From Cladosporium halotolerans (Eukaryota): a DNA stretch of 64,000 nt. Below the pieces are notes generated by a model. That model saw only the letters and a list, made by a program, of their open reading frames with translations. It was not told the DNA's origin and made no database searches. Position numbers and translations under genes: made by a program. The stretch's first letter is position 1; each line of letters starts with the position of its first letter. This document shows, one piece after another, positions 34,546 through 55,932 of the stretch. The stretch covers positions 186,001 to 250,000 of the forward strand of contig NW_027191466.1 in the NCBI RefSeq assembly GCF_011745625.1. Reading direction: 5' to 3'.

Positions 34546-34820
34546 CGCGACGTCTGAATGTAAGCCCCTTGTAGAAGAGCCTGGGGCGCAATTGGGAAGG
34601 GCAATGGGCGACTGTCTCCCGCAAACCGTCGCCTGCAGCCGCTTCTGGGGACGCCGCGGGAGTTTTTGCGGCAAGCTTGGCATGACTCGCGTGCGCAAGC
34701 TGCTCAGCCGAACATTCAAGCAACCTTTCATTTGCTGTCGATGTGTCGGAGAACAGCACACCACTGATCATACTGTCTGCACGGCGCACACTCTTGGGCA
34801 CTCAAGCGCTGGACATCAGG

Positions 34821-37073
34821 ATGTCCTACAATTATGGTGCACCTCCTGGTGCCTATGGCGGGCGTCAGCCGAGCTACGGTGCTCCAGGCATAGCGCCGCC
34901 TGGCATGGACGCGCCTCCTGCCGCTCAGAACCAATTCCAACCTCCGACAAATATTCCTCCAGGGATCAATTTCAATGCGCCCGTGATCAGACTGGGGGTT
35001 GACCAGCCGAATGCGCCAACTGCAGATCGTGGATCACGCGACGGCAGAGGAAACGCCGACTCTTTAGGCGGCAACAGCAGGAGAGCCGGCCTCGGTGCCG
35101 ATGGCGGCAGCAGGAATCTTGAGCGCGACCGCGCGCAGATTCGCGAAAGCATGTTGGCTATCCAGCAGCCGACCCGAGAGGAAGTGGCACGGACGATTTT
35201 TGTGGGCGGAATCGGAAACGACGCGCCTGAGGACGAGGCTATTGAGAACATTCTACGGTGCGCCGGCAAGCTGCGTCGCTGGACTAGAGCGCGAGACGCT
35301 GACGACAAGAAGTGCAAGTTCGGCTTTGCGGAGTACGAAGATGTCGATTCGCTCGAGGCTGCCAACGAGCTGTTTGGAGACGGCATTGAGGTGCCGGCCT
35401 TCAAGGCTCGTCAAGTGATCCGCCATGGAGAGAACAATGAAGTCAAGTTCACGAAGCTCACGGTCATTGTCGACGAGCAGAGCCAAAAGTATATCGAGGA
35501 GTGGACGAGCAAACGGAACGAGGACGAGGATGCGCGTCAGTTCCGCCTCGACGGTTGCAAGGAAGATTTGCGCCAGTGCCTCACATCACTTACAAATGCC
35601 GATGCCTTCATGGCGAATTCTGCCGCGAACGGAGAGCAGGATGGTCCCGCAGACGAATCCAATGCAGAAAAGAAGGGGGGTGACAGCGCTGAGGTCGTCA
35701 ACATTACGCTGAACGGACAGGGCGAAGACGATCTTGCAGACGTTCCAGAGGATATGCGTGCGACTGTGGCTGCGGAGATTCTGGCCTTCCGTGACCGCTC
35801 AAACAGACGTGATCTTGACCGGCTGAGGCAGGAGGAGGAGATGGAGCAGAAGGAACGCCAACGCGCGATGGGAAGCCGTCTCAGTCGGCTGTCTTCGCCT
35901 CCCAGGGGTACCCCAAACGATGGGATTCCTTCTGGGCCGCGTGATCGTACCGCTGGACCTTCAGGTGCGCCGTCTGGGCCGAAAGGTTACCGCAGTGTAC
36001 AGATGCCGTCTGATTACGCTAATGGTGTTGGATTCGTTGGTGCCAATGGCGCGGGAAATGGCATCTCACTGAATCGCGAAGACGAGGACGCAGAAGAAAG
36101 CGACGAAGAGCTTGAGGCGCGACGCCGCAAGAAGCGGGAGGATGAACTTGAGAAGCAATATCTGGACCAAGAGCGCAAATGGTTGAATCGCGAGCGCGTG
36201 TCTGCTAGTGCCAGGCAGCGCGATCGTGACAACGAGGCAAGGTCGAAAGAGCAGAGAGACCGTCAGAAGGATGCCATGATCAAAAGGCTACGGGAGTGGA
36301 ATGACGACGAAGAGAATCGTCTTGGCCATGAAGAGTACTACGTTGATCGATCGGCTTGGCTGCGCAAGCGTGCTGCCTATCGCGACAATGAATCTCGCCG
36401 CGATGATTCTGATCGCGCCAACGAGATGCGTGAACAGTCTGACCAGCAAGTTCGCGATGCCGAAGCTCGTGGCCAGGCGGATGCTTTTCTTGACCAGCTG
36501 GACAGCGAGCTTACGAGCAGATCTGCTGCAGAACCTGCCGGACCTGGAAAAGCTTTCAAACTCAACCTTGGAGCTGCCAAAAACAAGGCTTCTGCCGCTA
36601 CCACAGGTGCTGGCTCCCGGCGCACCGTTGCCGAGCTGGAAGGACTTCTCGAAGACGAGGAGGGAAGACGCAAGACTGCTCTCAAGCCACTCACCGACAC
36701 TTCTACACTTCCGACCAACGGTGCGGACCTTAGCGATGAAGACCGCGCTGCCGCCCGACAACAGCTCGCTGGTGAGATTCCGACTGACACCGAAGCATTG
36801 TTTGCCTACAAGGTACGCTGGTCCTCGCTGTCATCAGAGAACATCGAAACGCAGATTCGCCCGATGGTTGAGAAGAAGGTGGTCGAATATTTGGGCGTGC
36901 AGGAGGAACTGCTCGTTCACGCCGTCGTTGATGGCATCAAGGATCAGCGCGCTCCGGAGGAGCTGGTTGGAGAGCTCGAGCCCGCACTGGAGGAAGAAGC
37001 TAAGGTTCTCGTGAAGAAAGTGTGGAGATTGGTCGTGTTCCTCAGTGAAAGCGAAGGTAGAGGGCTGAACTGA
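34821..37073 (+). CDS. SNU71: U1 snRNP-associated RRM + PWI protein (Snu71/RBM25/Usp107)
   Basis: RRM (TIFVGGI..CKFGFAEYED), charged coiled coil, REWNDD, PWI domain (EIPTD..LFAY..IRPMVEKKVVEYLGVQEE..VKKVWRLVVF). Confidence 0.9.
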   Translation: MSYNYGAPPGAYGGRQPSYGAPGIAPPGMDAPPAAQNQFQPPTNIPPGINFNAPVIRLGVDQPNAPTADRGSRDGRGNADSLGGNSRRAGLGADGGSRNLERDRAQIRESMLAIQQPTREEVARTIFVGGIGNDAPEDEAIENILRCAGKLRRWTRARDADDKKCKFGFAEYEDVDSLEAANELFGDGIEVPAFKARQVIRHGENNEVKFTKLTVIVDEQSQKYIEEWTSKRNEDEDARQFRLDGCKEDLRQCLTSLTNADAFMANSAANGEQDGPADESNAEKKGGDSAEVVNITLNGQGEDDLADVPEDMRATVAAEILAFRDRSNRRDLDRLRQEEEMEQKERQRAMGSRLSRLSSPPRGTPNDGIPSGPRDRTAGPSGAPSGPKGYRSVQMPSDYANGVGFVGANGAGNGISLNREDEDAEESDEELEARRRKKREDELEKQYLDQERKWLNRERVSASARQRDRDNEARSKEQRDRQKDAMIKRLREWNDDEENRLGHEEYYVDRSAWLRKRAAYRDNESRRDDSDRANEMREQSDQQVRDAEARGQADAFLDQLDSELTSRSAAEPAGPGKAFKLNLGAAKNKASAATTGAGSRRTVAELEGLLEDEEGRRKTALKPLTDTSTLPTNGADLSDEDRAAARQQLAGEIPTDTEALFAYKVRWSSLSSENIETQIRPMVEKKVVEYLGVQEELLVHAVVDGIKDQRAPEELVGELEPALEEEAKVLVKKVWRLVVFLSESEGRGLN

Positions 37074-37275
37074 GCCGTCGCCTCGACTTGGAGGGTAAAA
37101 TTAGCTTAATATGGGGGCAGAATTGGTTCAAGCATGCGCGCTGTATCGCGGAGAGGGTAGCATTAGTCACAAACGATGGGAAAGAGCCTCGAGGTAGTGA
37201 AGTAGCACGAGCCTTGGGTATCTAGTTCCCTGAAATCATAACTCCTTCGATGACTGCCAGTAGTCTCTCAATCGT

Positions 37276-37974
37276 TCACACATCAGGCCAGAAGCCCTTC
37301 TCGGCCCAAAGCACCTGTCTCCAAACCTCCTCGCACTCGCCCCACTCCCAGCCTCCCTCCTCCATTGAAGCACCGAACTTGTTCACTAGCCCTCCAATTC
37401 TCCTGACAAAGGCCTCAAACTCCGACGAACTCCAATTGGGGATGAAGACGCGCTGCATGACATCCTTATCCTTCGCCGCCAGCGCATGGTCCATCTTCGA
37501 CCACGCATGTCTCCAGGAGCGCAAGTAGCATTCTTCAGTCGCCCACAGCGCCACGAGAGAGACAACGAGCGGTCTCGACGGAGCCGCGGCGCCAGCGAAC
37601 AAGTCTTGGTACGCGCGCGTCTGAGGCGTAGGAATAGCGTCGCAGATGTCGTCCAGCCAGCCTTCCGCGGCCGCAGTATCCTCGAACAGCTTCAACTCTC
37701 TCTTGATGTTAACCAGCGCATCGATCAACAGGTCTGCGACGCGCCACTCCAACGTGTTGTCTCGCTGCGTGGTTCCGGGAATGGGCAGGCGGGACAGCAT
37801 GGTTCCCATGAAGTTCACGTAACTCATGGCGTACAGCCGGTCCTGAGCCAGCCATGTCTTGAGGTGGGCAGGCGAGAGCTGAGACGTCGCTGCAGCGGCC
37901 AGAAATGGGTGCTGAGTCGCTTCGAGCAAGGGCAAAGGCTCAAGGCCGATGAGGTGAGAAGTTAGAGAGGGCAT
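37276..37974 (-). CDS. TenA/THI-4/PQQC (heme-oxygenase-like) family protein, TenA_E-like
   Basis: ATQHPFL, WLAQDRLY, NIKRELKLF, LWATEECYLRSW, FIPNWSS.EF, WAEKGFWP. Confidence 0.87.
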   Translation of the reverse strand: MPSLTSHLIGLEPLPLLEATQHPFLAAAATSQLSPAHLKTWLAQDRLYAMSYVNFMGTMLSRLPIPGTTQRDNTLEWRVADLLIDALVNIKRELKLFEDTAAAEGWLDDICDAIPTPQTRAYQDLFAGAAAPSRPLVVSLVALWATEECYLRSWRHAWSKMDHALAAKDKDVMQRVFIPNWSSSEFEAFVRRIGGLVNKFGASMEEGGWEWGECEEVWRQVLWAEKGFWPDV

Positions 37975-38464
37975 GTTTGCGCCGCAAAGTAAGGCAGAGG
38001 CTTCTTGCGAGGTTGCGACACAAAAGGTCAAACTGGCGAGGAGGTAGTACTTGCCAACATTCTTCGCGGAGCCATGTTTCCAACGGCCCTCTACGTAATC
38101 AGCCCACGCCCCGCCCACGCGAAGTCGGAGTGAGGTCTGGTGCGATTCGGAGCCAGAGGCTGGGCGGTTCGCGCTAAACGTCTGCAGGTTGGGACCAGCC
38201 ATACCGCTTGCGGTCGAGGCCCCACCATCATGATCATTATTCAGATCCTCCAGATCTTCCAGGAATTGATCTAATAGACTTGTCCGTTCTCTTCAAGCGA
38301 ACGTTTTGGATAGCGAAAAACATACACGATGCAGTAACATGAGTCTTGTGGAGGGGTAATACCTTCAATGACAATATACGGAAGATAGATCCATCATCGA
38401 AAATGCTATTTTGCCCGCCACTTCAGCATCCCCATTCCAATCACGCAATATTCTATCTCTCCAG

Positions 38465-39337
38465 CTACTCAGATGGCTCATCTTTGAAGACCTGGTCGTA
38501 ATCGGCAACACTTCGTCTAGGCCGTGCTGATTTCCGTCGGGCCCTGTCATTCTCCGCTCTTCTCGAGTCTCTGCGGGAAGACTGACGGCCACGGGACCCC
38601 ACGCCAGACAACATGCTGTTAGAAGTCACAGAGCTTTGCCTTCGCTGACTTGCAATTTGGCTCGACATGCGAGTCGATCTGGGATTGCGAGGTACCTCTT
38701 TGACGTCTTTGAGCCATTCCGGCGGTTCGTCCCCTTGGACTTCGTAGCGTTTTCCTTTCCAGAGGTAGGTCTTCTTGGGCGGCTCCTCGTCGGTCGAGCG
38801 AAGAGGGTCAAAACCAGCTTTACCGTTGACCTCGAGCTCCTTGGGGACTTTCACAATGTCCCCGAGATCAGACCTTGATGCGTCAGTGGTGGACGTCTCA
38901 GTGGATACGATTATAGCTGGAGGCCCCTTTCGCGGCACATTGCCTGATAGTTTTGCTGGCGTCGACGATCGGGTCTTCATCTGACTGTTTTCGGGAGTGA
39001 CACTGCTGTTTTCTTGCATGCTGTCCCTGCGCTTCTCAGCTTTGAGCCGAGGACTAGGTGGAAGATCGTGGTCGTAACCCGTCAGGCGTGTGGCAAGCGC
39101 AGCATCTTGGGCCGCAACGGCATCAGGAGCTTCGAAGTGGGGGCTTTTGTAGACGTTCATGCGGTTACCATCCGCTGTGCCGACTAGAAATGCCGCAGAG
39201 TGCTCAGGTGGCTCCTGGGGCATAAGGATTCTGACAGCTGTATCGCCATCCTGTCCACGTCTCCAGCTGGGTCTTGCCTCGGATGTGGCCGGAAAAGGAC
39301 AATCCCATCGATGATGTGGCACAGGATAGTCCCCCAT
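38465..39337 (-). CDS. Hypothetical low-complexity S/R/P-rich protein (290 aa), apparently with 5'UTR introns
   Basis: 290-codon ORF; an intron with GTGAGA/GCTGAC/TAG signals (39356-39409) sits just upstream of the ATG. No recognisable domain. Confidence 0.6.
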   Translation of the reverse strand: MGDYPVPHHRWDCPFPATSEARPSWRRGQDGDTAVRILMPQEPPEHSAAFLVGTADGNRMNVYKSPHFEAPDAVAAQDAALATRLTGYDHDLPPSPRLKAEKRRDSMQENSSVTPENSQMKTRSSTPAKLSGNVPRKGPPAIIVSTETSTTDASRSDLGDIVKVPKELEVNGKAGFDPLRSTDEEPPKKTYLWKGKRYEVQGDEPPEWLKDVKEVPRNPRSTRMSSQIASQRRQSSVTSNSMLSGVGSRGRQSSRRDSRRAENDRARRKSARPRRSVADYDQVFKDEPSE

Positions 39338-41607
39338 TGAATATGCAGCGAAGCTCTAAGAATCGCGGTCAGCTATATTTCCTGAAGGATGCAGCCAGTG
39401 GTTTCTCACTCGATCTCTCCTGAGCTTTCCAAGGTGTGATAACGATGATTAAACTTTGTGTAAGAGCTCCAATTTCGAGACGTACGCTTTGTGAAGCGTG
39501 AGAAATGTGTTTATGGTGCAGTTGAATATGCCAGGCGTGATATGCGATCTGATGTGTATTTGGGTTGAGATTGTGGCAATCCGGGGTGCGGGAGAAAGAC
39601 GGCGGTGATCTACCAATGTTGCAATTTAAGCGTCAAAGATGTTTCGGACAACCAAAGATGTAGGTGAAGTGCGTGAATTCGAGACAAAGGAGGCTGTGAC
39701 TGGGTTCAAGGCAACGAGCTACACAGCGCCACGTGAGATGTTCCACCCTGGTCGACGTGGCTATGGCTATGGCGTGGCGCCAGCCTAGTCAAAGTGAAAA
39801 TCACGCGTCGAGACAACAACTTCATCTGTCACGAAACAATTATACTCGACTTGGGTCAAACGCACGAATTCGCCCATGTAACTTTTTGAGTGCCCGTTGC
39901 TCGTGCTTTCGTCCTGATGATCGCGAGCTTGCCCGGGGCTGAGCATTACATGTGCGCTTCTAGTCTTCGCGCACCAATTGCGGTCGTTACCGCACTAGAT
40001 CTGTCACATAGTTAATAAAGAGCGCCTTTCATCGGAAATAGACGTGTTGACACGTGAGTAACCGGAGTCGAGTGCTACACGAATACAGTCACTGCCAGCC
40101 TGGCTTCAGGCCGAACTAGCTCACGTTTGCAAACATCAGGCGACGTCCGCTCAGCAAGTTTTTCACATTCTTTCTCCTTTCATTGACACGCACGAAGGTG
40201 GTCTCAGTCAGAAGGCTTCGATTTCCCGGGCACAAAGCCCACAGCAGACACCAAATGTCTAATCCGCCTTGTAGAGATGTTCGTCAAATTGGACGACCGT
40301 CGGCAATTGAATGAATCAACTAGATCTCCCACTTTCCAGTGCGCTCAAGAAAATTATCAGCAGCTTTCCCAAGAGCCAGAAGGAAACACTCGAGTGATCC
40401 GAGATTTTCAAGCGAGGCAGATCACAAGAAAAAGCACCACATTGTTTTGCGATGATTTTCTTGAGGTAAAGCAAGCTTCTCATAACGTGCACTCGCACAT
40501 TGTCGTGCCATCTTGCTCCGGCTGCCGCAAAATACGCCCAAGTAATACCAGCAACATAGATCTGTAAGTAGGCTGCCGTAAATGTACTAAAGGTAGAAGC
40601 AAGATACGGTCTGTCGTCTTTGGTGGGGCTGTCACGTAGTGTTCTCATGTGTATTATGTTGAGAAGCGCCCACGCTCCGAAAGACTCAATCCTGCTGCCT
40701 TCACATAAGCGAGGGAGGCTATGACACACGAGGACTTTGGGTCTCGCAGAAGCGGCTTCGCCAGATCGAATGAACATCGCTCAGACTTACGCGTCGAACC
40801 ATGCCTGGACTCGCAAGCAATTACCCAAACTCCATTGGCAAGGTGAGAGTCGAAGTCGGAGACGTGCGTGTATTCATAATTTGACCAGTCTCCACAAGAG
40901 CACTGCGCTACTGGGAATGGTTATTGTTCAAAGCTGAGCCGCACGCCCTCCTCTACTATGGGACAGGCAGTATTTTGCAAATGTCATGCTTGCGGTCTCG
41001 GTCGCATGCCATCTTCCGCGATGTTTTTCTGCGGTAGAGGTGGGGCCGGCCCGGGCTTTGTCGTGTCCAGAGAGAAGCTTGGGGGCTCGAAAGATACAGT
41101 ATTACATGACTGCACTATAGCACAGCGGCTAGAGCTCAAAGCGTGCCGTACACCGCTCACTAGGGCTACCAGTTTCCTGCTGAACCCTGAGCAAACACGA
41201 TCTGTAGGATGGGTCAGCTCTGGGACTTTCTTGTTGCACCAATAGGATCCATCCTGAATAAACCGAATGCGCTCCTCCTGATCCATTTGCAGTAAGTGCG
41301 GGATGATGGCCTTGTAGGCGCGCAGGGTGTTGTTCGCCTGTGCCATAGACGTTCCCTGTTAGCAGAAGTTCCTGAAGTCAAAACCAGCTACTGGTCCGTG
41401 CGGCGACTTTGCCGGCACGCCAACAACATCCACCTCCTTTTAGATTGCCGCCGCATGTATATAGCACCGTCCGTGTCGCAGGTGACGCCAGCATCATCAT
41501 GTAATTGTTTCGCTATAGGGACTGAAGAACAAGTCTATTGCTCCTACCTCCAAGCCGTGTCTCATACCTCCCCTCAACTGTTCAACACCAACTCCACCGT
41601 AAGCGAC

Positions 41608-42327
41608 ATGGCTGGCCACGAGCATTCCCACTCCGTTGCGGACAAGGAGGTTGAAGTTCCTGACTGGGAGCACAATCCCGATGGAAACGAGAATGACACC
41701 TCAGCGAAGCCCTCGGCGTCTATCGTGGTTACAATGCGACAAAAACTGGACTCAATAATGCCCTCGCGCAAGAAATACCTCGGCATGCGGAGGAAACTCT
41801 TCCTGATAGTCCTGCTCGCATCAACATTGGCGTTGCTCGCTATCGTTATCGGTCTGTCTGTCGGATTGACTCAAGGATCGAAGTACATAGCCTTGTCTTA
41901 AGCTTGGCAATCTACGACTGACTGTTTGTGTAGATCCAAGAACCTGCCTCTTCCGTCGAACGCGCAAACTTTCACAGGTGACCTCACCTACTACCAGCCT
42001 GGGCTTGGTGCCTGTGGTCTGACCAACACCGACGCTGACGACATTGTTTCTGTCTCGCACTTTCTATTCGATGCGGCAGGCAGTTCCAGCTCGACTGGCG
42101 GCAACTCCAATCACAACCCGTTGTGTGGGCTCATGCTGCGCGCGGAGCGCTTTGATGAAGACCGCGGAGAGCGAAGAAGTGTAGACTTGAAGGTCGTGGA
42201 CCGCTGCACAGGCTGTGAGCCGGATGATCTCGATGTGACAATCACCGCATTTGAGAAGCTCGCGTCAAGTGAGAAAGGGAGGGTGAGTGTCAGTTGGGCT
42301 TGGCTTGACTCGGAGTCTTCAGGTTAG
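41608..42327 (+). CDS. Type II membrane-anchored RlpA-like double-psi beta-barrel / expansin-like (Asp f 7-like) protein; exons 41608-41882, 41934-42327
   Basis: KKYLGMRRK plus a TM helix, then FTGDLTYYQPGLGACG..IVSVS..NPLCG..VVDRCTGCEPDDLDVT..AFEKLA..GRVSVSWAW. Confidence 0.9.
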
Positions 42328-43186
42328 GCATGAATGGTATCGAGAGCTTGTCCTGCTGGTCTCCAGCAAGTATTCCAGCGTTCTGCGTCCTTATCGCGTG
42401 GTTGCAAAACGTTTTGAGGAAGCTGTGCTCGGAACGCTCAATTGATTTCACAGGTACCTCGCGAGCGAAAGCACCCCCATGACATATCGCGAACCGCGTA
42501 TGAATATACTAGGAAGATTCTGGTTATGACGCGAAGGTGCCTTGAAGTTTGTTTCTCGGCGTGCGCTATTTGTCTGTGGGAGTCGCTCAGGTGCCCTGAC
42601 AGGAGGGTTGATCGCACCAAATGTAATAGTTGCAGGTGGAAATCGTGCTTTCGGGAGCAGTGACAGCGGTTCGCTACGGATGCAGGTCACAGAAGACGTG
42701 AAAAAGGCTACACACGGCTGCCTCCACGCCTTCTGTCTCTCGGGATAGGGCGCCGGTCTTGCCTGATTGCATGTGACTGACACAGTGAGGTCGAAAAAGC
42801 TTATTTTGATTTGCGAGCGCGCCTGCCGTCGCTTTTCTATGCAGTCGCAGCAGCCTCTCAACTTGCAGCACCTTCTTTTCACGACCAGATTCGACTCCAT
42901 CACTCGAAATTTCTCTCACCCGTGCAGTTGCCACTGTTCCAAGCTGCGTAACACCCACACGACACGACTATCACTGCACATCAGCCTGGGAAGCCCCTAC
43001 AACACGCGCACCTCCAGTCCCTTCACGCCCAACGTTGTACGCCGCCACTGCAGTGAGGACTGGTCACTTCACATTGGAGCCTTTCGCGACAGAAACTTGC
43101 ACTGTACATCATCATAACCTATTACCAACTCAATGCACTCGACCGGAGCACTCTAAGCCTCAGCTTGATCCGCGTCTCACCTAGCC

Positions 43187-46065
43187 ATGGGCTTCTACAA
43201 AGATCTCAACAAGGACAAGAGTTATCACAGGGCGAATTTTTTATGCGCAGCGATCGCACTCGCAGCATTATGCAGCGTTTACCCGGTAGCGTGCTTCAAG
43301 AAATTCAGCGGGAAGGAGAAAGCAAAGATGAAAGCAGAACTGGCGGAGCTGGAGCGGCAGCAGCAGGAGGACAGCGAATGGGAGAGAAATCACCGCCCAA
43401 GACGAGCGAGGCATCGGTCACATTCACCACCCCGAACTTCTCACCGCCCACATCGCCATCGCCGCCATTCCTCGGCGAGATCGCCACCAAATTACCCACT
43501 CGAAACCATGACCAACCGTCAACCAAGCTTCCCGGTACATCAACAGTAGGACTACGAGATTGGGGATCCCATGAAGCCTCGCAGGACCCACACGACCGAC
43601 CGAGCCTTAGATCGGGAGAGATTCGAGCGCCATGGTGGGCATCCTCCTCCGAGGAAATATCACTGAAGTTCATGGGAAGGGGTCTTGGGGCCGATGCCCT
43701 AGGCTCAAGCAAAGAATCTTCGGAAGAGCAGTCCCGCAGATCTTCAACACCTATTCAGCAGGACATGGGAAATACCCACCATACATTCTCTGATCCATTC
43801 GCGACCAAAGCCAGAGCAACTGCGGAGGTATCAACTGCATCTGACCAAGCTGCGACAATTTTCAACACGAAACCCTTCGAACACACCCCATCAAATACAT
43901 CGAGCTCGGAATCCTCGACGCCTAGCTCTGCTGCATCGAGCTTTGCTTACCAGTTGCGGCGTAGAGTTGACATGCGACTCTTGCGCAAGCGGTACAGGCC
44001 GTCTCAGCACAGGAAAAAACATGCTATCGCGAAGGTCAAAACTTCGCCACCCCTACGTTCCCCTACGTATGGCATACCGAAGGTTGTGGAAGACAGTCGT
44101 GATAGCAATTGCGTCGATGAAAGACAGCACAAGAATTACGAAGCACTTGAGGCATATCTAGACAAGTCCGCAAAGGCAGCGGTCAAGTCGCTGAAGTTAC
44201 CACCGCCCAAGCAGCCGCGAAGATCTCCGAACAGTAGCCCGGGAAAACGTTCAAGAGACTGCTCGCCAGGGCATAGATCATCGTCACCAGCATCGGCACG
44301 CTCGAAGCCTGTCAAGCAGAAGCGGCCGGGCATTCTGCGATCGTCGGCCTCACTCGATGTCACGGAGCTGCCAACTTTACCCTTTGTCCGAGCAAAACGT
44401 CCATCTTTATCTCTGTCCAAGAATTCGAGTCAAGGCTCCGCAGAGACGGCTCGTGCGGCGCGCTCGTCGAGCGCAGGAAAATATACCAGCTCATCCTGCC
44501 GGCAAACCCCAATAAGTCCGTTGACGCGCGACCCTTTACCGTCAACGCCGCAATCTGCCGATACAGGGAAGTCAGAAACAAATCCATTCCAGACCGACGA
44601 TAACTACTTCTCAACGTTGCGCACAAAGATCACAAGTCGCCAAGCATTCACGCCGACGCTCTCCCCAATGGAACCCGACCAGCCTAGCCTCGATCCTCGT
44701 ACAACAGAGCAACCAGGCCTGCAAGGTAGTACAGAAGTTTCAGTGGAGCAGGGGCCAGGAATGAGCCCTGACGCAATGGAAAAGCGACAGAAGCGTGGGA
44801 GCATCTTCAGCATCTTTGGATTGCCGGTGCCTGGGAAGAGTTCAATACCAAATACACTTGAAAATTCTGACCGGACACCTCACGATTCTCCCGCTGGGCG
44901 AGCACCAGACACTGCGAATCAAGCATCTGAGGAATCTCTGAAGAAGTTCCAGAGACGCCTATCCAACGATCATCCGCTTCCGCCCTACTTTGCACGTCCC
45001 AAACGGCGTCAGGCTAATTCCGACGTCTCGCCATCTCCAATGTTATCGCCAGCGAGTACCAATACCCGCGAGTCAGCGTTCTCGAAAATCCCGCATTCAC
45101 GAGACGCAAGTGATGAGCTCGGCCCAATCTCTCCGTTCACTCCGCTTCCTCCCCTGCGCGAAGACTATGACCGAAACAGAAGGGTGTCTATCGAGATTCC
45201 TGGCACGCCTGGCATACACCATCGACCGTCAGACACACCCGCTCCATCCCCCGTCCATGACATCGTGAAACTACCTCCTGCGCCAGTCCAGTGCACTGAC
45301 AAGGAGGATACCACTGCTGTATCGATCGGTAGACCGGAACTCATCCGTAGGCTCTCCTTCCGGTCAAGAGCTCCCAGTGGTCAACAAATAGGGCCGGATC
45401 CTCCGTCATGCGAGCCGGGTCCTGCTCGCAAGCGCTCTAGCGTATACCGCAACATCTTACCAGAACTCAACGCCATCGCAAGCCATCGCAAAGCATCCGC
45501 CAGTAGCGGCGAGCGCATCGCCCGCTTCGCAAGGCGACGGCGCTCAGCCATCACACCCATCACCCGACAGGCCACCTTCACTAGCACAACCAGCAAACCC
45601 GTCAAGCGCACTTTCACCCTATTCAAAAGAACAAACACCACCAGCACTTCCCTCGCCCTGGCCCTGGACCCCCGAGAATAGGATCTGACCGTGACGGGCT
45701 TCAGCCAGACGCCCTTCGCGCAGCGCTACCACGACGAGAAGCGCAGCGAGCAGGCGCTGATGCGCTCGCACATCAGCAAGGCGAACGCCGAGGACGACTC
45801 GGACGGCGACGACGCGCCCGCCCTGCTGCGCATGCACGTTCCGGACCACCTGCCCGGCAGCCCACTGTGTCCCATCGAGCCGACGAATCACCAGAGCGGC
45901 GGCAGGAGCATTTGTCCTCTGCACGGCAGCCGCAAGAGCATGCTGGCCAGCGCGCAGAAGCGGAAAAGCAAGGTCGGCGGAGGGCAGAGGGGGAGTCTTA
46001 CAGGGGCGGTGAAGAGGGAGCCGGAGATTGTTTTTGACAGTGGCGATGGTGATGGGAGGCTTTGA
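43187..46065 (+). CDS. Hypothetical, largely disordered protein locus with uncertain structure: short TM/coiled-coil ORF from 43187, long S/P/R-rich ORF to TAG 45679-45681, and in-frame continuation to 46065
   Basis: ORFs 43187-43549, 43165-45681 and 45682-46065; the last two share a frame and are separated by one TAG. The C-terminal part carries VPDHLPGSPLCP..HQSGGRSICPLHG, a Cys/His motif I recall from fungal hypothetical proteins. Confidence 0.65.
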
Positions 46066-47019
46066 GGTCGTTGGTCCTAATAATATTAATTTTTTCTTTC
46101 CGTGGCTTGGAGGCGATTCCTCTTCTGCTTTGTGCGATTGCCCAAGATACCCTGTTAATTCTACTGATGCTCACAATTGCTCACGAGTCTTCAATTCGAT
46201 CGGCGCCGCGTCGTCCCAAGATACCCTCAAAAAACGTGCCAAAAGCAGCATTCGGGCCCTCCTCATGTCTCCTACCTGCTCCTTGAACTCACATCAAGAA
46301 CTTCCATGTGAAAAGCTCTCCATTCGACCCCAACACCGTCACAGACCTTACAATTACAGAGAAGCGAGCCGCTCCTCCAAGAACCAAAGCGACATTGCAA
46401 GCGAGGAGAAAAAGAGGGCGGGACGAGAAGATTGTGGAACTCAAAGTAGAATACAAGTCTTCGCAAGCAGGGCGTTACAGAAAATGGTGATAAGTTTTCC
46501 TTCTCGCGCAATAGTGATTCCCCCGGTTCGCGCAGGGGCATTGGAAAGGCGAGTCGATCGCCCGCGCCAGCCTGTCAATCATCGTGTCCATCCGTCGCTC
46601 CGCTCCGATAGCGAAAAAAAAAAAAGACACAGAACAAACCTCCTGTTTCCGTTTCCCCCCGAGAGAAACCCATCGACTCACGAAATAACGGAAAAGAAAA
46701 AGCAGAACAGAACGCCTCATCAGGTGAAGGATCGATTTCGATTTTCGATCCGGACGTAATGAAAGAGGGAGGTTGGAAAAAGCAACGCCTCGTTTTCCCG
46801 TGGATAGTCTTGACATGTGAGTGTGTGTGCCTCCTTCTCTTGACGTTCCTCCGTGAAAAGGAGAGCACCGAGCCATCATCCCAAGCAAATTTTTGTTAAA
46901 GTAACAGGGTTCAGAAAGGGAGAGAGAAAAGCTGCGCCGCGGAACTCCATCGCTTGTAACAAACAGGACACACGCCGATTTGAGTGAACAGTCCGCAGCG
47001 CCCTCGAGATCGTCAATGG

Positions 47020-49947
47020 CTATGAGTTGGAAGGCGTGCCTGCGTCGTCCATCTTCACATCCTCTTCGGCGACCGCGCTGCCGCCTTCTTGCGCGCTCTT
47101 GATCTCCGAGCTGCTAGCTTGCAGTGCAGGAGGCCCAGCCGCAGATGTCGGGCCCGACGCGACGGAAGCCGGTGAGCTCTCGCGGTCAGGCTTGCTGTCC
47201 GAAGGCTGCTCTTTGGCTTTGCTGCGCTTGGTATAGTCGCTGAGGCTCAGCTTTTTGCGCGTCGGATTAGGCGCGACAGCGGCGGTGACGGACGGAGAAA
47301 AGATGGGGCCGGCGGGGCCGGCAGCTGCAGGGGATTGCACGAGGGCGCTATTTGTTCCGCTGCTCGAAGGAGGTTGCTGGCCGGCAGCGAAGGGATTCAC
47401 AGGCGGTGGTGGCATTGAGAGACTCATGTCGGGCGCTTTTGCGGCGTCAGTAGTAGGAATCGGTGGCGCTTGATCAGGTGGCGGTCCTTGGTCTGAGTCT
47501 GGTGCTTCTGATGGTTGATCTGGCGCTGGCGGATCTGAGGGGAGGTGCGAAGTCTGAGGGCTGCTAAGAGCAGGAGGCTCCTTTGCCGGTGTTTCATCAT
47601 CCTTTGGTCCCTCGTCTTCCTGCTTGGAACTCTCAACGCCATCTTCACCAGAATCCTTCATCTCCACATCTTCGTTCGTCGGTAGTGATGGTGGGTCTTC
47701 GACTTCAGGCTTTTTAGTGTCGTCGGGGTTTGGTGCAGGCGAAGCAGATTTGACGCGTTCTGATGGTTTGACATCCACGTCCATCTTTGTTTCAGCTTCA
47801 GCGGTCTTAGCCCGGATTTTCAAGCGCACTTCCTTGCTGATCGCATTATTACGCGCGCACCGCTCAAGCAAACGCTGGTGGAGGGAAATGAAGGGTCTCC
47901 GAACGCGTGGAGGCTCCTGCGCTTGTGAAGCTTCCTCATCAGACATATCGCATTGCACGCCGGAGTGAACGTACGCCGGCTTCGGTGTCCTAGACCGTTT
48001 GGTGGAAGGCTTGCCTGAGGCGCTCGTTTTGGTGGCAGGCTTCGGTCGCTTGCCACTGGATGATTTTGCAGGGGGTAAGCCAGATTGTCTTGACGTTCCA
48101 GCGTCTGCATATCTGGACGAGCTAGTCGAAGGCAGACTGGGTTGCTTCGGAGTCGTGGTGCTTGGTGTGTTGAGTGCCGAACCGCCACTGCTGCGTTTCT
48201 TCTTCGATTGCTTGCTAGTAGCTTGCTCATCTTGCTTCGAAAACAGCTCTTCCACTCGCGCTAGCTTCCTTCTCTCGCGCTCCGACATCTCCGTCGTGCC
48301 GCTCGTCGAGTAATGCGTGTTAGGCGTAATGTCGCGACTAGCGGACCCCCGGTCGGCAGAGCCTGAAGTCGAGCGTGAGTCAGTGGGCTCGTCATCTACA
48401 TCGACCCTGCGCGCCTCACTACCTGAGCGGCTATTGACGGCATGGGTATTGACGGGCGATATCTGGGATCCAGCCTTCTTCTTCCTTCCAGGCTGCTTAG
48501 GAATCTTCGCGGGCTCGGTCTCAGGATCGACAGTGGGGTCTCTCCTGTCGAAGCGAGACATCAAACAGCTCTCGCCTCGAGAGCATGCGCAAGGGCCGCA
48601 GTTGGCGAGAATGGTTGACACCCATGACGATATCCCCGACATATCTTTCTGCGAAATGTTGCCGCTGTGACGGGCGTTCAACCCGGAAAGCCCGCTGTTC
48701 ACATCCCAGGCAATGGCAATCTCTTCGCCCGCTTCGATGTCGCGCGTTGCGATGAAGCAAAAATGATAGTCGGCCGGTCCAGTAATGATAATCTTGAGTT
48801 CTGCGTTTGGCGAGCAGCTGCGCCTGATGTATCGTACAGGCGTGCCTTCATTGCGCGCGTCAATGCAGATAGGAAGCTGAGAGTGCAGAAAGACGAAAGG
48901 CTCCGGATGACGCAGAGTAGACCAGCGAGTCGCTGGGTCCTCGATGTAGTCGCCCTTCCACGTCAAATGGCCTCGAAGCTCACCTATGCAAGCGTGTGTC
49001 GCAAGTGGCTCCGACACGGTCGCATATCTCCACATCGCAGGCTGTCCATCGGGTGTTTTGTATGTGGGATCACGGCGTTCGCGAATTTCGAACGAGGGAA
49101 CGCCATCAATAATACTGATGTCTCCGTCCCAGCGTTGGAAGACGTTATGTGGCTCGACACCACCCGTGACCTCGAAGCACTCATCTGGGTTGGTGAGCCA
49201 CTTCTGCATGGAGCTGTAGAGCTGAATGTCTGGAACATTAGTGTGCGGGACGTTGTAGTCGTCTTCGCGGTAAATGCGGATGAAGTCCGCCGAGTACATA
49301 GGGAATAGGGCGTCTGGCGATCGCGAAACGCTTCGCCTGTGGTTGGTGGACGAGCCATTGTTGCGCTTGCGATCCTTCGGGACCTGGAGCGGGTTGGTTG
49401 TCGAGTTGGATGTACGATGGCTTGTCTTGGGTCTTTTCGCGGGTGGTTGCTGGTCGCGGGGGCTCGCGCTGTTTCGATCGTGCCGTGATTTGTCCAGCGG
49501 CCACCCGTTCGTCGCGGCCGCGCCTGGGGCGTCCTTGGTCTTCTTTTTGTGGCTCTTACTGGTCTGTCGTTTATTGCCATTCTGCAAAGCGTATCGCTCA
49601 GCTCTTGCTTCCCGTTGACGAACATGCGCGGCTTGCGCATTTACGGGACGCTCGGGACGACATTCCACACACCAGTGCTGCAGCTCGTCTGGCAAACTGT
49701 CGCCGTACTGCGGATAGTAGCAAATAATGTGTTGCCACTTGTTGCAAGTATCGCAAGCGACCGTGTTGCCATCGTCTTCGTTGAAGCCGCAGATGCAGTT
49801 TATCTGGCCATCGTCCTCCTCTTCGATGTCGTCCGGAAGTTGCTGCTGGTGTGCGAGATGTGCGTAATCGTCGGGGCTGGCGATACGGCCTGAGAATGGC
49901 TTAACGTCCTGACCAGTGACAGCGGTAGGGCGGAAGGTGTCTGTCAT
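47020..49947 (-). CDS. SET3: PHD finger + SET domain chromatin protein, Set3/Set4 family
   Basis: PHD INCICGFNEDDGNTVACDTCNKWQHIICY..HWCVEC; degenerate SET (IDARNEG..RYIRRSCSPNA..GEEIAIAW); C-terminal KKLSLSDY. Confidence 0.88.
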   Translation of the reverse strand: MTDTFRPTAVTGQDVKPFSGRIASPDDYAHLAHQQQLPDDIEEEDDGQINCICGFNEDDGNTVACDTCNKWQHIICYYPQYGDSLPDELQHWCVECRPERPVNAQAAHVRQREARAERYALQNGNKRQTSKSHKKKTKDAPGAAATNGWPLDKSRHDRNSASPRDQQPPAKRPKTSHRTSNSTTNPLQVPKDRKRNNGSSTNHRRSVSRSPDALFPMYSADFIRIYREDDYNVPHTNVPDIQLYSSMQKWLTNPDECFEVTGGVEPHNVFQRWDGDISIIDGVPSFEIRERRDPTYKTPDGQPAMWRYATVSEPLATHACIGELRGHLTWKGDYIEDPATRWSTLRHPEPFVFLHSQLPICIDARNEGTPVRYIRRSCSPNAELKIIITGPADYHFCFIATRDIEAGEEIAIAWDVNSGLSGLNARHSGNISQKDMSGISSWVSTILANCGPCACSRGESCLMSRFDRRDPTVDPETEPAKIPKQPGRKKKAGSQISPVNTHAVNSRSGSEARRVDVDDEPTDSRSTSGSADRGSASRDITPNTHYSTSGTTEMSERERRKLARVEELFSKQDEQATSKQSKKKRSSGGSALNTPSTTTPKQPSLPSTSSSRYADAGTSRQSGLPPAKSSSGKRPKPATKTSASGKPSTKRSRTPKPAYVHSGVQCDMSDEEASQAQEPPRVRRPFISLHQRLLERCARNNAISKEVRLKIRAKTAEAETKMDVDVKPSERVKSASPAPNPDDTKKPEVEDPPSLPTNEDVEMKDSGEDGVESSKQEDEGPKDDETPAKEPPALSSPQTSHLPSDPPAPDQPSEAPDSDQGPPPDQAPPIPTTDAAKAPDMSLSMPPPPVNPFAAGQQPPSSSGTNSALVQSPAAAGPAGPIFSPSVTAAVAPNPTRKKLSLSDYTKRSKAKEQPSDSKPDRESSPASVASGPTSAAGPPALQASSSEIKSAQEGGSAVAEEDVKMDDAGTPSNS

Positions 49948-51866
49948 GCTATCACGTCTGCGATCAGAGTCGTGGGTGGTGACGGGTTCAGGTGACGGGA
50001 TCTTCGCCGAGCCTGCGTCGCATGACGGGAAGGCTGCTGAACGGCGCCCGATGGCGGAAATGGTCGACACCGCACGGTGTGCGCAATCGGTGCCGCGTCT
50101 TTGAAGGTCGTCGACGGGCGGGACAAAGAGCGGCTTCGCTGGCGGTCAAGGGCGGGGACTCGGCGGCGTCTAGAAAGCGGAGGACGCCAATGCGTGCAGA
50201 TGACGGCGCGTCACGGTGTCGCTGGAGGGTGAGGGTGTGTGGCGATCGAACATGGGCCAGGGAGTCGAGTACGGTCGCGGTTTGAGGGCGAAGAAGCGTG
50301 CGTGGCGGCGGTGGTGGTGGGCGAGCGGCGGCGCGGAAGGGAGGGCGGGCGGGTGGGAGGCTGCAACCGGGCTCAAATACGGTCGTGATAGAGTCGCATA
50401 AGAATCGAAAGGCGTCAAGCGCGAGCCTGGGAGGGTGAGGAGAGAGATGGGTGGTGGAGTGTGTGTGGGAGGGAATTGGGTGACAGACTCAGACCTGAGG
50501 GGACGGACGCAGCAGCAACCCGACCACCTTCAGCGCGAGTTTCTGTGCTGCTGCGCGTAGCCCGCGTCACGCCGCACGCTGCATACCGGCGAGGGAGGCG
50601 GCCCGTGCGCTGGCCCAGCTTTCGCGCTGAGCCTGAGGCCGCGTGCGGGATGCGGCCTGGCGGCCTGGCCCACGCCGGCGCTCAAACGGGCCATGAGTCT
50701 GGGCGGAGCAGGTGTCTGCTGTGGGCTGGCACAGAAGACAGTAGAGGTCGCGGATGTGCGTTCACAGGCGGGCGTGGCGGGCGGCAGGCAGGAGGCAAGG
50801 TTGGCGTGCTGCGAAAGCACGAAGCCAGCACGCTGCCAGCAGCCTCGAACGGTCCGCGAATCATCGTCGAGAACGGCGCTTAGGTTCGCGCTAAGAGGAA
50901 GGTTAAATCCGACTCGCGCGCGTAGGCCTCTGCAGCGTGGGCGGCTTCCTCCCTGCTGTTGTTATCGCACCACACTCTGTCCTCCCCGTGCGACAAACGT
51001 TTGCCGTGTCGCTGAGCTGATACGGCGAAGATGGCTGCCATGTGCGAACGATGACATGCGCTGGAGGCTTTCCGGAAGGCAAGCGCAGCGATGAGTCTGC
51101 CGCCCGGACTCGTGTCTGTCTGCCTTCCTTCCCACGGTTCGCGACGGCGCTTGTCCCGGACCCGCGACCTTCGAAAGGACGGTGGCCCTAGCGGACGAGC
51201 CAGCCTCTCGCCATCATCTCTCTCCTCCGCCCCTCGAGCTCTCGTCTCATCAAACTCGTCAGTTGGGGATCCGCAAATTCCCGCACGCCGTCCTATGCCC
51301 ATCGCATCACCGCCGTGCTGACGACCGCACTGTCGTACGAGTCATCTAGACACCAGGCCTTTCTCACTCACGATTAGGCTTTGCGAGCATCTTCGACGGT
51401 GCCAACAACAGTCTCCATGCAATTTGCAGCGCACTCAACATCGACGTGTACAACCTTCATCTAGTGAGATGTCCAGTGGTCGCACTGTAGTAGGCGACAC
51501 ATTCCTATCATCACCAGTCAAAAGAAATGGAGAACCAAAACACGAGGTGGGATGATCAAAGGACAAAACGGGTCCTGGGCTATGTCTCAGTTGCATGGAA
51601 AGCTGCGAAACGGTCGTTGTTGTGATATGGCGACAGCCGTTTCCTGCGGAAGGGCGAGGACAGACGCCATCTGACTTCTGCTCGTTCAGCCTGCGCTGGA
51701 GTTGCCTTCCGAACATTGCCACATGGAGCCGATAAAGAACAAGGTAGGCTCTTCAACTGGAAACTAGACACTCGCATCTGCAACGCTCCGATCGAGATCA
51801 TAGGCATCCATTCCCCTCAATCAGATATCTAGCTCGAAAGATGCGCTCTTTAGAACAAACCTCTCA

Positions 51867-53447
51867 TCATCGCCAACCCTGGCTCGAACTGCGATGGTCC
51901 TCATTGCTCATACTCTCAAAGCTCAAATCCCATTCGTCGACCTCCGCGAACTTCCGCCGCGCCTCCTCCAGCTCCTTGCTGTGCGCCACCTCGTGCATTG
52001 TGAGGCTTGTGTCCCCTTCCTCTTCCTCCAAGCCGGACTCCTCGCCTGCATTCTCCTTGTCGGACGCTGCTGCGCGGCCGTAGGTCCTAGTGGCTTTGCC
52101 TTTGTTTTTCGTCGACGGAGCAGGAGCGGCGGATTTGCGAGTCTGCTTGGGCTTTGTCTTCGCTGGAGCGGCGGTCTTCTTCCTGCCTTTGGTTTGCGCA
52201 GGGGCTCGGGTCTGCCGTCTGGTCCTGCCGCCCAGCTCGTCTTCGTCCTCGTCCAGATGTGTAGTGTCGAACGCTATGCCGTCGTCGTCTTCGTCCGAGG
52301 GTATGTCGTATTCTGTCCGGCCGTAGCTGGGCTGCGTTCTTCGTGTGCGTCTAGGCAGGAGAGCGCGTAGTGTTGCCGTTGACATGTTGACTTGCTTCTT
52401 GCTACCTCTACTTCTCGTCTTTGCTGGTTCACGTGGCGGTGGCGAGACTTGCGTGAGAGGATCTGCGTAGATGTCCGTGCGCTGTGTCTCCGGTATTGGT
52501 GAGGCGAGTGGGCTACTGCTGGCTGGTTCGGCCATGGTAGCGTTGGGCGCGTCGAAGTCGCTTTCTTGCTCCTCGTCATGGACTGTTTTTCGACGCTCCT
52601 GCTCCTCCGTGGATGGCACTGCCAAGTCTGCCTGTTCGGCTCCAGCGGGTTTCTCAGCAGACGAAGGTTCTGTAGGCGGTGTTGACTGTGGCGAGGAATT
52701 GACGACCTGTACGTCTGAGGTGATGGGGTTGGGCACAGGGCTCTCCTCGCGGTCTGATGAGGCGTGCTCTTCCACTTCGCCTTCAGCGTCGACTTGAGGT
52801 AGTGACTCCTCTTCCGCAGGCGGTACAGCAGACTTCCGGTGCCTTTTCTTCAACGCGTCCAAAGCCGAGTGCGAAACATCCACATCGTCTGATTTTCTCT
52901 TCTTCCTCAACGCACCCAAAGCCGAACCCGGAGCCTCCATCTCATCCGACTTGCGCTTACTCCTCCTCCTCGTCGCCTGCACAGGCACAGGGCTCTCTGC
53001 CGCCTTAGACACCACACTCTTCGCAGCGGACGCGACACTCTTCGCAGCAGAACCCACGTTCCTCCTCCCCTTCGAAACCAAAACCGGCGTGCCCTCCGCC
53101 TCCGGCGCAAAATCCTCCTCATCCTCACTCGCGCTGCCCAGATCAAACACGCTCGTGCTCTCCACGCCATCGTCCTCCACCTGCGGCCTGGCGCTCAGCA
53201 TGCTCTGCTGCGCGATACTGGAGCGGCGGCGCTTGACCATCTCCAGCATGCTGCCCTGGCGCGGGCGGCGCTTGAAGTTCTTCAGAGCCAGCATGCTCGT
53301 CTCGACGGCCGGGCCGGGCGTGCCGGTCGTGTTGGTCTTCTCGCGCAGGGCGGGGCGTCGCGTCGTTGTTGCGGGCGCATCTTTGGTTGCTGAGGGCGGT
53401 GGCTTCGTCGCGGAGGGCGGCGCGCGGGCGCTGCGGAGGCGGGCCAT
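51867..53447 (-). CDS. Disordered nuclear protein with D-box, KEN box and Sororin-like C-terminal motif (candidate Sor1)
   Basis: RPALREKTN (RxxLxxxxN), NFKRRPRQGSML, STATLRALLPRR, RTYG, DKEN, ELEEARRKFAEVDEWDLSFE. Confidence 0.75.
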   Translation of the reverse strand: MARLRSARAPPSATKPPPSATKDAPATTTRRPALREKTNTTGTPGPAVETSMLALKNFKRRPRQGSMLEMVKRRRSSIAQQSMLSARPQVEDDGVESTSVFDLGSASEDEEDFAPEAEGTPVLVSKGRRNVGSAAKSVASAAKSVVSKAAESPVPVQATRRRSKRKSDEMEAPGSALGALRKKRKSDDVDVSHSALDALKKRHRKSAVPPAEEESLPQVDAEGEVEEHASSDREESPVPNPITSDVQVVNSSPQSTPPTEPSSAEKPAGAEQADLAVPSTEEQERRKTVHDEEQESDFDAPNATMAEPASSSPLASPIPETQRTDIYADPLTQVSPPPREPAKTRSRGSKKQVNMSTATLRALLPRRTRRTQPSYGRTEYDIPSDEDDDGIAFDTTHLDEDEDELGGRTRRQTRAPAQTKGRKKTAAPAKTKPKQTRKSAAPAPSTKNKGKATRTYGRAAASDKENAGEESGLEEEEGDTSLTMHEVAHSKELEEARRKFAEVDEWDLSFESMSNEDHRSSSQGWR

Positions 53448-53810
53448 TGTTGGCGCGGCCGGTTGGGTAGGGATGTATTCGGATTGTTTTTCGAGGGCCA
53501 GAGGGTTTATGGTTTCCAGGGTGGTGGTGGGAAGAGAGGTGGGTGATGACGTTCTGGACGAGACGCGTGATGGCTTGCTGGAACGCGACTTTCGCACAAC
53601 AGCCCACCAGCGGGCTTTGCTGGGTGGCAGAAGTCGTGGTCTGAGCTGGATTGCGCTCCAATGAGAGGGCTGCTCGTAGGAGGATGGGATTGGCCGTACA
53701 ATGCTCTTCTTTTGTTATTTATGTTGATGCTAACAATGCTACTTGAACACGTCATCAAGCATATTGTGATTACATACTCCGTAGATCAAGTAAAGGCCGC
53801 TATGAGCACC

Positions 53811-55932
53811 TTAGAACGGACCAACATTCGCGTTGCCCTCCAGCAGCTTCTCGATCATGCTGCGGCAAATAGGGTGGTAGAAATCCTTGTTCTTCTCGAA
53901 CGTCTCGCGGGCCAACGGGACGTCGACCTTCAACAGCTCCTTGTACAAAGGCCTGACGAACTTCATCCTGCCAACTCTTCCAGCGAGCGCCGCAGCGTCC
54001 TTGTAGAACTTCTCCGCCTTAGCCTTGAGAGCAATGACATAGAATCTGCTGACAAGCTCGACGTTCTTCGACGAGGCGTACGCGTACTCCTTGCCCATAG
54101 TCTCGACAAGAGCCGGAGACAGCGGGGACGGGAAGCCCTGAACGGCCTCAAGGAAGACGTAGCTCTGCTGAGAGGTGAACTTGGAGATGTCGTCGGCGCT
54201 CGGCTTGAAGTCTGATTTGCCCTCGCTGAGAGCCTTCCATTGATCCGCAAGTGCGAGGCAGGCGTCGGCAAGAGTGGTGTCGAACGCTGGCTTGGGTGGG
54301 AAGCCGGGCTTGTAGTACCAAGCGTCCCAATCGAGGTCATTGAGCTTCTTGCTGGCATCAGCATCTGACGCGAAGAAGTCAAGCAGCGTGGCCTTGAACT
54401 CGTAGGAGTCGACGGAGCGCTCCTTGAAAGTGGTGAAGTAGTGCGGAATGAACTTGTCCCACTGCTCAATGCCAATCAGCTTCTCGAGATGGTACAGAAA
54501 CACGAAGCCCTTCTCGTAGGGAACGCTGGAGAAGGCGTCATCCGGATCCTTGCCCTTCAGGTCAGGAATCATCTTGGTGAACTCATGGTCCTCGCCGAAC
54601 TGAGCAATGCTGTCGGACAAGGCCTTCCAGCCGATAAGGGCGCTGAAGTCGCGGATCTTGTCATCGTTGTGCACGGCGCCTTGGATGCGGCGCTCAAGGT
54701 ATACAGTCCAGCCCTCGTTGAGCCAGAAGTGCTCCCAGCTAGCACAGCTGACGAGGTTTCCGGACCTGCAGAGAGCGTCAGTTGATGTTGCCGAGCAGAT
54801 GTTGTACTTTCTATACATACCAGGAGTGAGCAAGTTCGTGAGCGACCACATCCACGTTAGCACGGTCGCCGCTGATCAGGGTGGGGGTTGCAAAAGTAAA
54901 GACTGGGTTCTCCATGCCGCCTGAACATCTATTAGCTCGTGGACCTTGAACAGCGGAATGCTCGCTTTTGCGCAAAGTCACGTTGTGGCAAGCGTTTTAG
55001 GACTTGAAACATACTACGAAGATGTCAGCATATATTTCTCATGCAGGCAGTGGCTCTCAAACTCACCCATAGGGGAAAGACGGCGGGAGAACAAGAACAT
55101 TGTACTGAGTCCAAGCATAGGGGTAGACAATCTTCTCCGCAGTCTTGATGTAATCCTCAGTGTCCGCCTCGAACTCCCACTGACAATCAGTGAGCTCCTC
55201 AGGGCCTGTCCACACAGTAGAGCGAGGACCGATCGACGCGCAAGCGAGGTCACCGCTGGCAACAGCGAACAGATACGAGGGCATGGGGACGCTCTGGTGG
55301 AATGTGTAGAGCAGGGTGCCGTCTTTGCCATCCTTGCCGACCTCGAAGTCCTTAGCTCCAGTGGGCAGTCCAGATGCAACGACCGGCAGGGGCGAGCGCA
55401 GGTTGAAGGTGTAAGTCGACTTCACGTCCGGAGTGTCCTGGCATGGCAGCAGCGATCTGGCGTGGATAGCCTGGCATTGCGAGAACATGTACGGTTGCTT
55501 CTTGTTGCTGGTCTGGGCCGGGGTCATCCATTGGAGAGCGGTGCAGTCCTTGGTGGTGGAGACTTCGATGTCGACGGTGACCTCGGAAGCAGAAGCGACG
55601 TACTCGTCGGCGAGACCGATGGTCAAAGGAGTACCGTATGGCTCGGTGCGCTTAGCCGCAAGCTCCCAATCGACCTTCTTTCCGGCCACAGTGACTGCAG
55701 AGACGTCCAGGAAGCTGGTGTCGAGAACGATCTTGCGTTCATCAGCGAGTTTCTTCAGGGTCAAGCTGACACTGCCGTGAAGACGCTTTCCTTCGAAGTC
55801 GATCGCATAGTTGGCGGTCGTGTGCTGCGTTCTCCAGGCATTGTAGTTGGCCAGAGTGTTCGGGTCTCTCGGTGCGTGAATGCTAGCAGCAGCCTTCTCG
55901 GCAGCAGCGTCAGAGATTGGCCGCATGACCAT
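53811..55932 (-). CDS. LTA4H: Leukotriene A4 hydrolase / M1 leucyl aminopeptidase; exons 55932-55068, 54920-54821, 54765-53811 (first intervening sequence is a stwintron); possible upstream start 56052
   Basis: [30 protein letters not shown] (after twin-intron removal), [28 protein letters not shown]. Confidence 0.95.
54921..55067 (-). other. Spliceosomal twin intron (stwintron), [D1,2] or [A2,3] type
   Basis: Minus strand reads G-GTGAGT..GCTGAC..TAG-TATGT..GCTAAT..CAG-G, with two complete sets of splice signals sharing one G. Only two-step removal gives the correct frame. Confidence 0.88.

Follow-up and report, generated by a model that had tools for sequence, protein, structure and literature searches.

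The locus lies on the forward strand of the window, the 64,000-nt stretch of Cladosporium halotolerans DNA that was analysed, and carries a long frame, here called ORF B, which is open from position 43057, meets an in-frame TAG at 45679–45681 and then continues for 127 codons to a TGA at 46063–46065. The frame before the TAG counts 874 codons from stop to stop, 812 from the ATG at 43243 and 803 from the ATG at 43270, the conserved ORF B start that is kept in all 11 aligned lineages. A reading of the window from its sequence alone (hereafter the sequence-only reading) had picked out the in-frame TAG and the 127-codon extension, both of which stand, and its figure of 838 codons for the ORF counts from a TTG at 43165. 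The ORF B body (43270–45678, + strand) encodes a low-complexity protein rich in Ser, Pro and Arg, for which the Pfam search matched no family. Since the frame is open, no intron is required for ORF B in this clade, and reading through the TAG from ATG 43270 would give a protein of 931 aa. The TAG (+ strand) has the context GAA TAG GAT, with A45680 as the candidate edited base, and the surrounding A-U-A-G-G-A is exactly as described in the sequence-only reading. A base error or a nonsense allele private to this strain, which that reading had listed as alternatives, can be set aside: sequencing run X15, probably made from the source DNA, shows zero differences from the window over 34000–53900, and 11 of 11 related proteins with 88–98% identity end at the same residue as ORF B.

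Translation can reach the C-terminal tail and its TGA (45682–46065, + strand) only by decoding the TAG. At E ≤ 0.001 the tail matches 255 homologues, spread across the Pezizomycotina, and it is single-copy in the 27.9-Mb genome. No Pfam family was matched by the tail at E ≤ 1, and the ESM Atlas returned low scores only, the best being 0.81. A helix is predicted for residues 12–38 after the stop (45715–45795, + strand); the AlphaFold2 model of the tail is weak as a whole (mean pLDDT 64, pTM 0.32), reaches a pLDDT of about 90 over residues 11–30 and has no fold match in the PDB. The Cys/His motif that had been quoted for the extension is indeed in frame. It has the form H-x3-SPLCP-x-C-P-x-H (45847–45924, + strand), and H56, C63, C78 and H81 are invariant in all 18 aligned sequences, so that the motif is a possible zinc knuckle with putative metal binding. 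Selection downstream of the stop, which the sequence-only reading had proposed to look for, is evident. The pN/pS values, which are uncorrected, are 0.11–0.14 for the tail in eight within-clade pairs and 0.26–0.65 between the window and the others, and for codons 1–26 after the TAG, ahead of the first ATG, they are 0.00–0.28 within clades and 0.15–0.40 between the window and the others. Judged by this selection, the tail is translated, and the purifying selection includes the 26 codons ahead of any ATG. The first ATG after the TAG (45760–45762, + strand) is codon 27 in 15 of 17 sequences and cannot alone explain the conservation; the related loci L017 and L018 lack it, and their first ATG is codon 79.

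The alignment of orthologues, another check that had been proposed, shows the phylogenetic distribution of the stop. A metagenome scan yielded 79 loci, of which 24 are the closest (L002–L025, 23 of them displayed) and 55 are more distant (L026–L080); L024, which does not reach the TAG site, and L016, which starts downstream of it, were left out at this position. The TAG occupies the same codon in 16 of 16 assessable closer loci, and a sense codon stands there in 6 of 6 assessable Mycosphaerellales-like loci, where the frame is uninterrupted through the site and the residue is variable. In the closer loci the upstream frame is open for about 810–1060 codons before the TAG wherever the contig is long enough. 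When near-identical loci are merged, the 16 TAG loci and the window form 10 lineages, whose tails are 57–93% identical in DNA. The stop is never TAA in these 10 lineages, and none of the four invariant purine-ending two-fold columns kept a single codon. The terminal TGA of the extension is likewise unchanged in 17 of 17 sequences, and therefore the identity of the stop alone is weak evidence. Named homologues with the extended motif around the stop, about 35–54% identical, belong to Hortaea, Zymoseptoria, Cercospora, Friedmanniomyces, Baudoinia and related genera, which places the host among the Dothideomycetes but outside those genera. Across 89 distinct open-frame homologue contexts, the residue at the TAG site is Asp in 33, Ala in 11, Ser in 10, Pro in 9, Glu in 6, Tyr in 5, Phe in 3 and Trp in 1. 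A high-identity protein that reads through the site was absent from the 517–1645 aa class that was searched and from the 8000 scored candidates in each of the 139–457 and 455–2000 aa classes.

In six of the 55 more distant loci the frame is open except for a TAG that lies shortly ahead of the Cys/His motif. The Aureobasidium orthologues (L056, L059, L065, L071 and L074, at about 3870–3935), of which L071 and L074 are A. pullulans and L056 is near A. namibiae according to the cluster names, have such TAG gates at two different codons. At one site, CCA TAG GAG in L056, L059 and L065 is replaced by CCA TGG GAA in L071 and L074; at the other, L071 and L074 have TTC TAG CAA whereas L056, L059 and L065 have TTC TCA or TTC TCG. 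Thus, each species has exactly one gate, at differing codons. The pN/pS ratio beyond the Aureobasidium gate sites is 0.21–0.29. The listed protein models end at the stop in 14 of the 15 members of the A. pullulans cluster, the remaining one being a partial model, and in all three members of the A. namibiae cluster. The downstream neighbour of the Aureobasidium orthologues is CDC73. A further distant locus, L076, looks decayed: it carries several stops, one of them a TAA that lies 39 codons upstream.

A second frame, ORF A (43187–43702), which the sequence-only reading did not mention, overlaps the start of ORF B. Its ATG at 43187 has a strong context and lies 83 nt upstream of the ORF B ATG. 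The first part of ORF A (43187–43546, + strand) is read in the other frame and encodes a hydrophobic N-terminal segment, with a hydropathy of 2.2 over residues 19–37, followed by an Arg/His-rich region. ORF A is single-copy, is 42–68% identical in 10 long-flank loci and is recognisable also in Aureobasidium; the ESM Atlas gave nothing for it. An in-frame TAG (TAG GAC, 43547–43549, + strand) is the second candidate gate, and the coding signal in frame A persists in the continuation past it (43550–43702, + strand). Variation peaks at frame A third positions, including those beyond this TAG, and over 43611–43700 the amino-acid identity is 0.74 in frame A versus 0.43 in frame B. TAG-GA is found at the 43547 site or no more than three codons from it in L002, L004, L006, L009 and L012, and the frame is open in L018; 10 of 11 lineages have at least one TAG within ORF A, and L018 has none. 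The codon at 43673–43675 is TAG in 5 of 11 lineages (L002, L004, L019, L023 and L025) and TGG in the other 6 (the window, L006, L009, L012, L018 and L020), with no other codon seen, and the matching ORF A codon of Aureobasidium encodes Trp. In frame B, the same swap falls on a third position and is synonymous. In the six codons that follow it, the TAG bearers show 15 synonymous versus 6 non-synonymous codon pairs. Only this strain has a TGA at 43664–43666, three codons ahead of the conserved Trp; in 11 of 11 other alleles the residue encoded in frame B rules it out.

Since the ORF B ATG is also kept in 11 of 11 lineages, frames A and B both appear to be real, and the locus appears to be dual-coding on this comparative evidence. 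NCBI models of relatives fuse ORF A to ORF B at differing points, suggesting that the introns in those models are predicted rather than real. The base before the ORF B ATG is T in 11 of 11 lineages (43267–43272), placing the A of the start codon in a U(–1) context as well, partly because ORF A coding forces a T there.

Removal of the TAG by splicing, as the 3' acceptor of an intron spanning 45601–45681 or of a longer alternative, is very unlikely. The 81-nt segment would be in phase 0 and TAG followed by G is a legal acceptor; in addition, the distant members L040 and L047 have genuine TAG acceptors, which were counted as such and not as gates. However, there is no conserved donor: L012 lacks any GT within 200 nt, near-consensus donors within 500 nt are missing in 4 of 10 lineages and lie at unrelated places in the others, and the GTCAAG at 45601 was dismissed because it is not conserved. 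Branch-like motifs occur in 5 of 10 lineages, all 51–69 nt from the site, and the segment upstream of the TAG evolves as coding, with the frame kept and pN/pS of 0.26–0.70. These data agree with the sequence-only reading, which had found no branch site or strong donor and had noted that the preceding 80 nt look coding, and they speak against the weak intron that it had kept as an alternative. Run X2, the only one of four mapped runs that shows canonical spliced joints, points the same way: two introns in neighbouring genes are spliced, yet a 5998-nt contig covering 44464–50465 crosses 45601–45681 without a joint at the TAG, although contigs drop minor forms and the strand of this contig is ambiguous because it also spans a convergent SET-type gene. 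The contig holds the 3' half of the ORF B gene and the entire SET-type gene, which suggests overlapping 3' ends or antisense read-through between the two genes. X2 differs from the window at 108 A>G plus T>C places as against 109 G>A plus C>T places, a balance that reflects strain divergence and says nothing about editing.

Programmed readthrough, in which some ribosomes would decode UAG by a near-cognate tRNA with no RNA editing, is the main rival and is considered improbable. It accounts for the fixed stop, the downstream selection, the varying residue of the open-frame homologues and the absence of assemblies with TGG at the 45679 site; in 9 of 10 lineages the stop follows two adenines, and two gates (A. 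pullulans and L020) have UAG-CAA, both of which are leaky contexts. Nevertheless, UAG-G is found at four of the six gates, and the residue usually inserted when UAG is read through is Gln, Tyr or Lys, whereas the clean swaps are with TGG. Moreover, the gene family contains no TGA gate, UGA being described as the leaky stop in PMC4817773, and no conserved stem-loop follows the TAG. A split gene, with the TAG as an ordinary terminator and the tail made as a separate small protein that begins at the downstream ATG or at a near-cognate GTG, or that comes from transcription starting internally, is hardly probable. The codon-27 ATG shared by 15 of 17 sequences, a GTN at codon 4 and the short tail proteins reported by gene callers fit such an arrangement, but codons 1–26 are constrained like the rest of the tail, codon 4 alternates among GTG, GTC, GTA and GTT, L017 and L018 lack the ATG, exactly one codon separates the two frames at each gate, and the TAG/TGG swaps are left unexplained. 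The least probable explanation is a neutral nonsense codon ahead of a slowly decaying tail, or else a suppressor tRNA or code change. The private TGA at 43664 shows that nonsense codons exist nearby and stops can persist; against this, the tail is intact and constrained in 10 lineages despite synonymous divergence of up to about 0.6, of the 21 long ORFs in the window 7 end in TAG, and no tRNA gene was found in the 20 of 30 CTA-anticodon pattern matches scanned.

Judged from these comparisons, the UAG is a real, conserved and functional recoding site. The best-supported mechanism is A-to-I stop correction, by which UAG would be read as Trp in a Dothideomycete, and we consider it probable because TAG/TGG swaps are found at two other sites and because the gates are exclusively TAG with an A at +3. 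Acting on UAG, A-to-I editing yields Trp and no other residue. Each of the six gate sites of the gene family is a TAG with an A at +3 relative to the editable base, and two of them swap with TGG; the background frequency of A at the second codon position is 0.26–0.36, and the +3 pattern was spotted after the fact and partly reflects a conserved Asp/Glu. The –1 and +1 bases of the gates are dictated by the TAG codon itself. Predicted folds of 31 and 41 nt, which are weak and not conserved, leave the candidate A unpaired in 9 of 10 lineages, and it is paired in 2 of 10 lineages in 61-nt folds and in 3–4 of 10 in 101-nt folds; no conserved hairpin is present at the TAG across the 10 lineages. The sequence-only reading had proposed A-to-I editing of a restorative kind. 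Editing itself remains the favoured mechanism, but the edit would restore no ancestral Trp at 45679, since Trp occurs in only 1 of the 89 open-frame contexts. It had also pointed to the interest of a host outside the Sordariomycetes and Pezizomycetes, and the host is indeed a Dothideomycete.

In the proposed A-to-I correction, ribosomes would stop at the UAG by default, producing a disordered S/P/R-rich protein that lacks the helix and the Cys/His module. Under certain conditions, for which the sexual stage and viral or stress induction are candidate triggers, an ADAR-independent deaminase would convert A45680 to inosine; Tad2-Tad3 with a cofactor and an OLD-type enzyme are the candidate enzymes. 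The edited codon would be decoded as UGG, yielding the 931-aa protein with a Trp at the junction, the helix and the possible zinc knuckle. The UAG of ORF A would probably be corrected in the same way, and ORF A probably also damps the translation of ORF B. Across the Dothideomycetes the gate seems to have been gained repeatedly at different codons, suggesting that an editable stop ahead of the domain, and not its position, would be what is selected.

Candidate machinery and other stop-bearing genes are found elsewhere in this genome. OTT_1508 deaminase matches number five uninterrupted and one broken (L084–L089, on G000 contigs C663, C691, C527, C105, C95 and C128), and none lies on C57, the contig of this locus. 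Of three DUF726 genes, two show AS and SI at the position of the Ame1 MV residues, a position that was estimated rather than taken from an Ame1 alignment. Of 128 kinase matches, 16 that contain one or two stops were picked for inspection: 13 have intronic stops, two have a TAA in apparently degenerate copies, and one has a non-intronic TAG. The last is an NDR-like kinase (L098, G000:C175:218093–218506, + strand) whose in-frame TAG lies in the catalytic domain in the context AGG TAG TAC, with A at +3; it does not correspond to the PUK1 site, whose sequence in this genome is TGG TGG-like (DWW). The two copies with a non-intronic TAA, L103 (G000:C5:6784–7263) and L106 (G000:C663:19829–20203), lie on small contigs and are probably degenerate. 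For known Fusarium targets of premature-stop correction (PSC), none of the three DNA-methyltransferase matches has an internal stop, and a Spo11 match was discarded as its TAA sits in an apparent intron. One of the DNA methyltransferases, L081 (G000:C217:218392–222024), has a 740-codon frame with an in-frame TAG and 55 open codons ahead.

Among known systems, the closest parallel is offered by the PSC genes of Sordariomycetes, such as PUK1, AMD1, RID and AMA1, of which there are 71 in Fusarium graminearum and whose editing involves Tad2-Tad3-Ame1. As in those genes, a fixed in-frame UAG lies within a gene under selection and swaps with TGG, U is found at –1 and purines at +1 and +3, and gene models are truncated at the stop (Aureobasidium); a non-TGG origin and repeated independent origins are also shared, as PMC10776026 describes them. 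By analogy, the ORF B gene may work like a Fusarium PSC gene. Unlike those genes, it belongs to a host of the class Dothideomycetes, has no known domain or PSC counterpart, and is dual-coding with gates in both frames. Programmed readthrough of UGA-CUA in fungi produces peroxisomal isoforms. A conserved coding extension behind a fixed stop is common to that system and to ORF B, but here the stop is UAG-G/C (TAG GAT in the window), the extension is the most conserved domain and not a short tag, and there are TGG swaps. The OLD-ZAO antiviral modules (Neurospora old-1/zao-1 along with old-2/zao-2, Fusarium CHE1) also have a UAG that gates a Cys/His-containing C-terminal region, and OLD-type deaminases are present in this genome; OLD-1 edits further sites too (PMC12754623). 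However, there is no OTT_1508-like gene on the contig, the tail matches no Pfam family and does not form a C2H2 array, and the neighbours are the SET-type gene here and CDC73 in Aureobasidium. An OLD-ZAO module was therefore rejected, as there is neither an adjacent deaminase gene nor C2H2 fingers behind the stop.

According to PMC11156358, editing in Fusarium prefers A or G at +1 and +3; Sordariomycetes and Pyronema are the groups with reported editing, and none was found in Aspergillus nidulans or Botrytis. The interaction between Ame1 and Tad3 originated in the Sordariomycetes (PMC11087585). PMC10776026 describes PSC stops as often derived from non-TGG codons and as arising repeatedly; it also mentions that in other classes single species have a stop at a PSC site, the presence of editing there being "yet to be determined". 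A term search of that paper's supplementary tables gave no hits, and its supplementary PDF may list Dothideomycete stops. The literature covered, mostly outside subscription journals, holds no report of editing in Dothideomycetes or of this locus. Which fungal classes edit their mRNA is a stated open question in both PMC11156358 and PMC10776026.

On balance, we lean slightly towards the broader view that Dothideomycetes, including the Cladosporium-like clade, Mycosphaerellales-like fungi and Aureobasidium, have their own A-to-I stop correction, and that both frames of this dual-coding locus would be switched on via UAG gates with a history of repeated gain, loss and relocation. The analysis has brought to light a conserved, unannotated overlapping ORF, and shows that public gene models are truncated, those listed for A. 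pullulans and A. namibiae ending at the TAG. It also pinpoints testable sites in Dothideomycetes that can be cultured, among them Aureobasidium pullulans. If true, A-to-I stop correction would extend to a class that ranks among the largest in the fungi, and since some of the hosts have no well-known sexual stage, either cryptic sex or a third trigger would be indicated.
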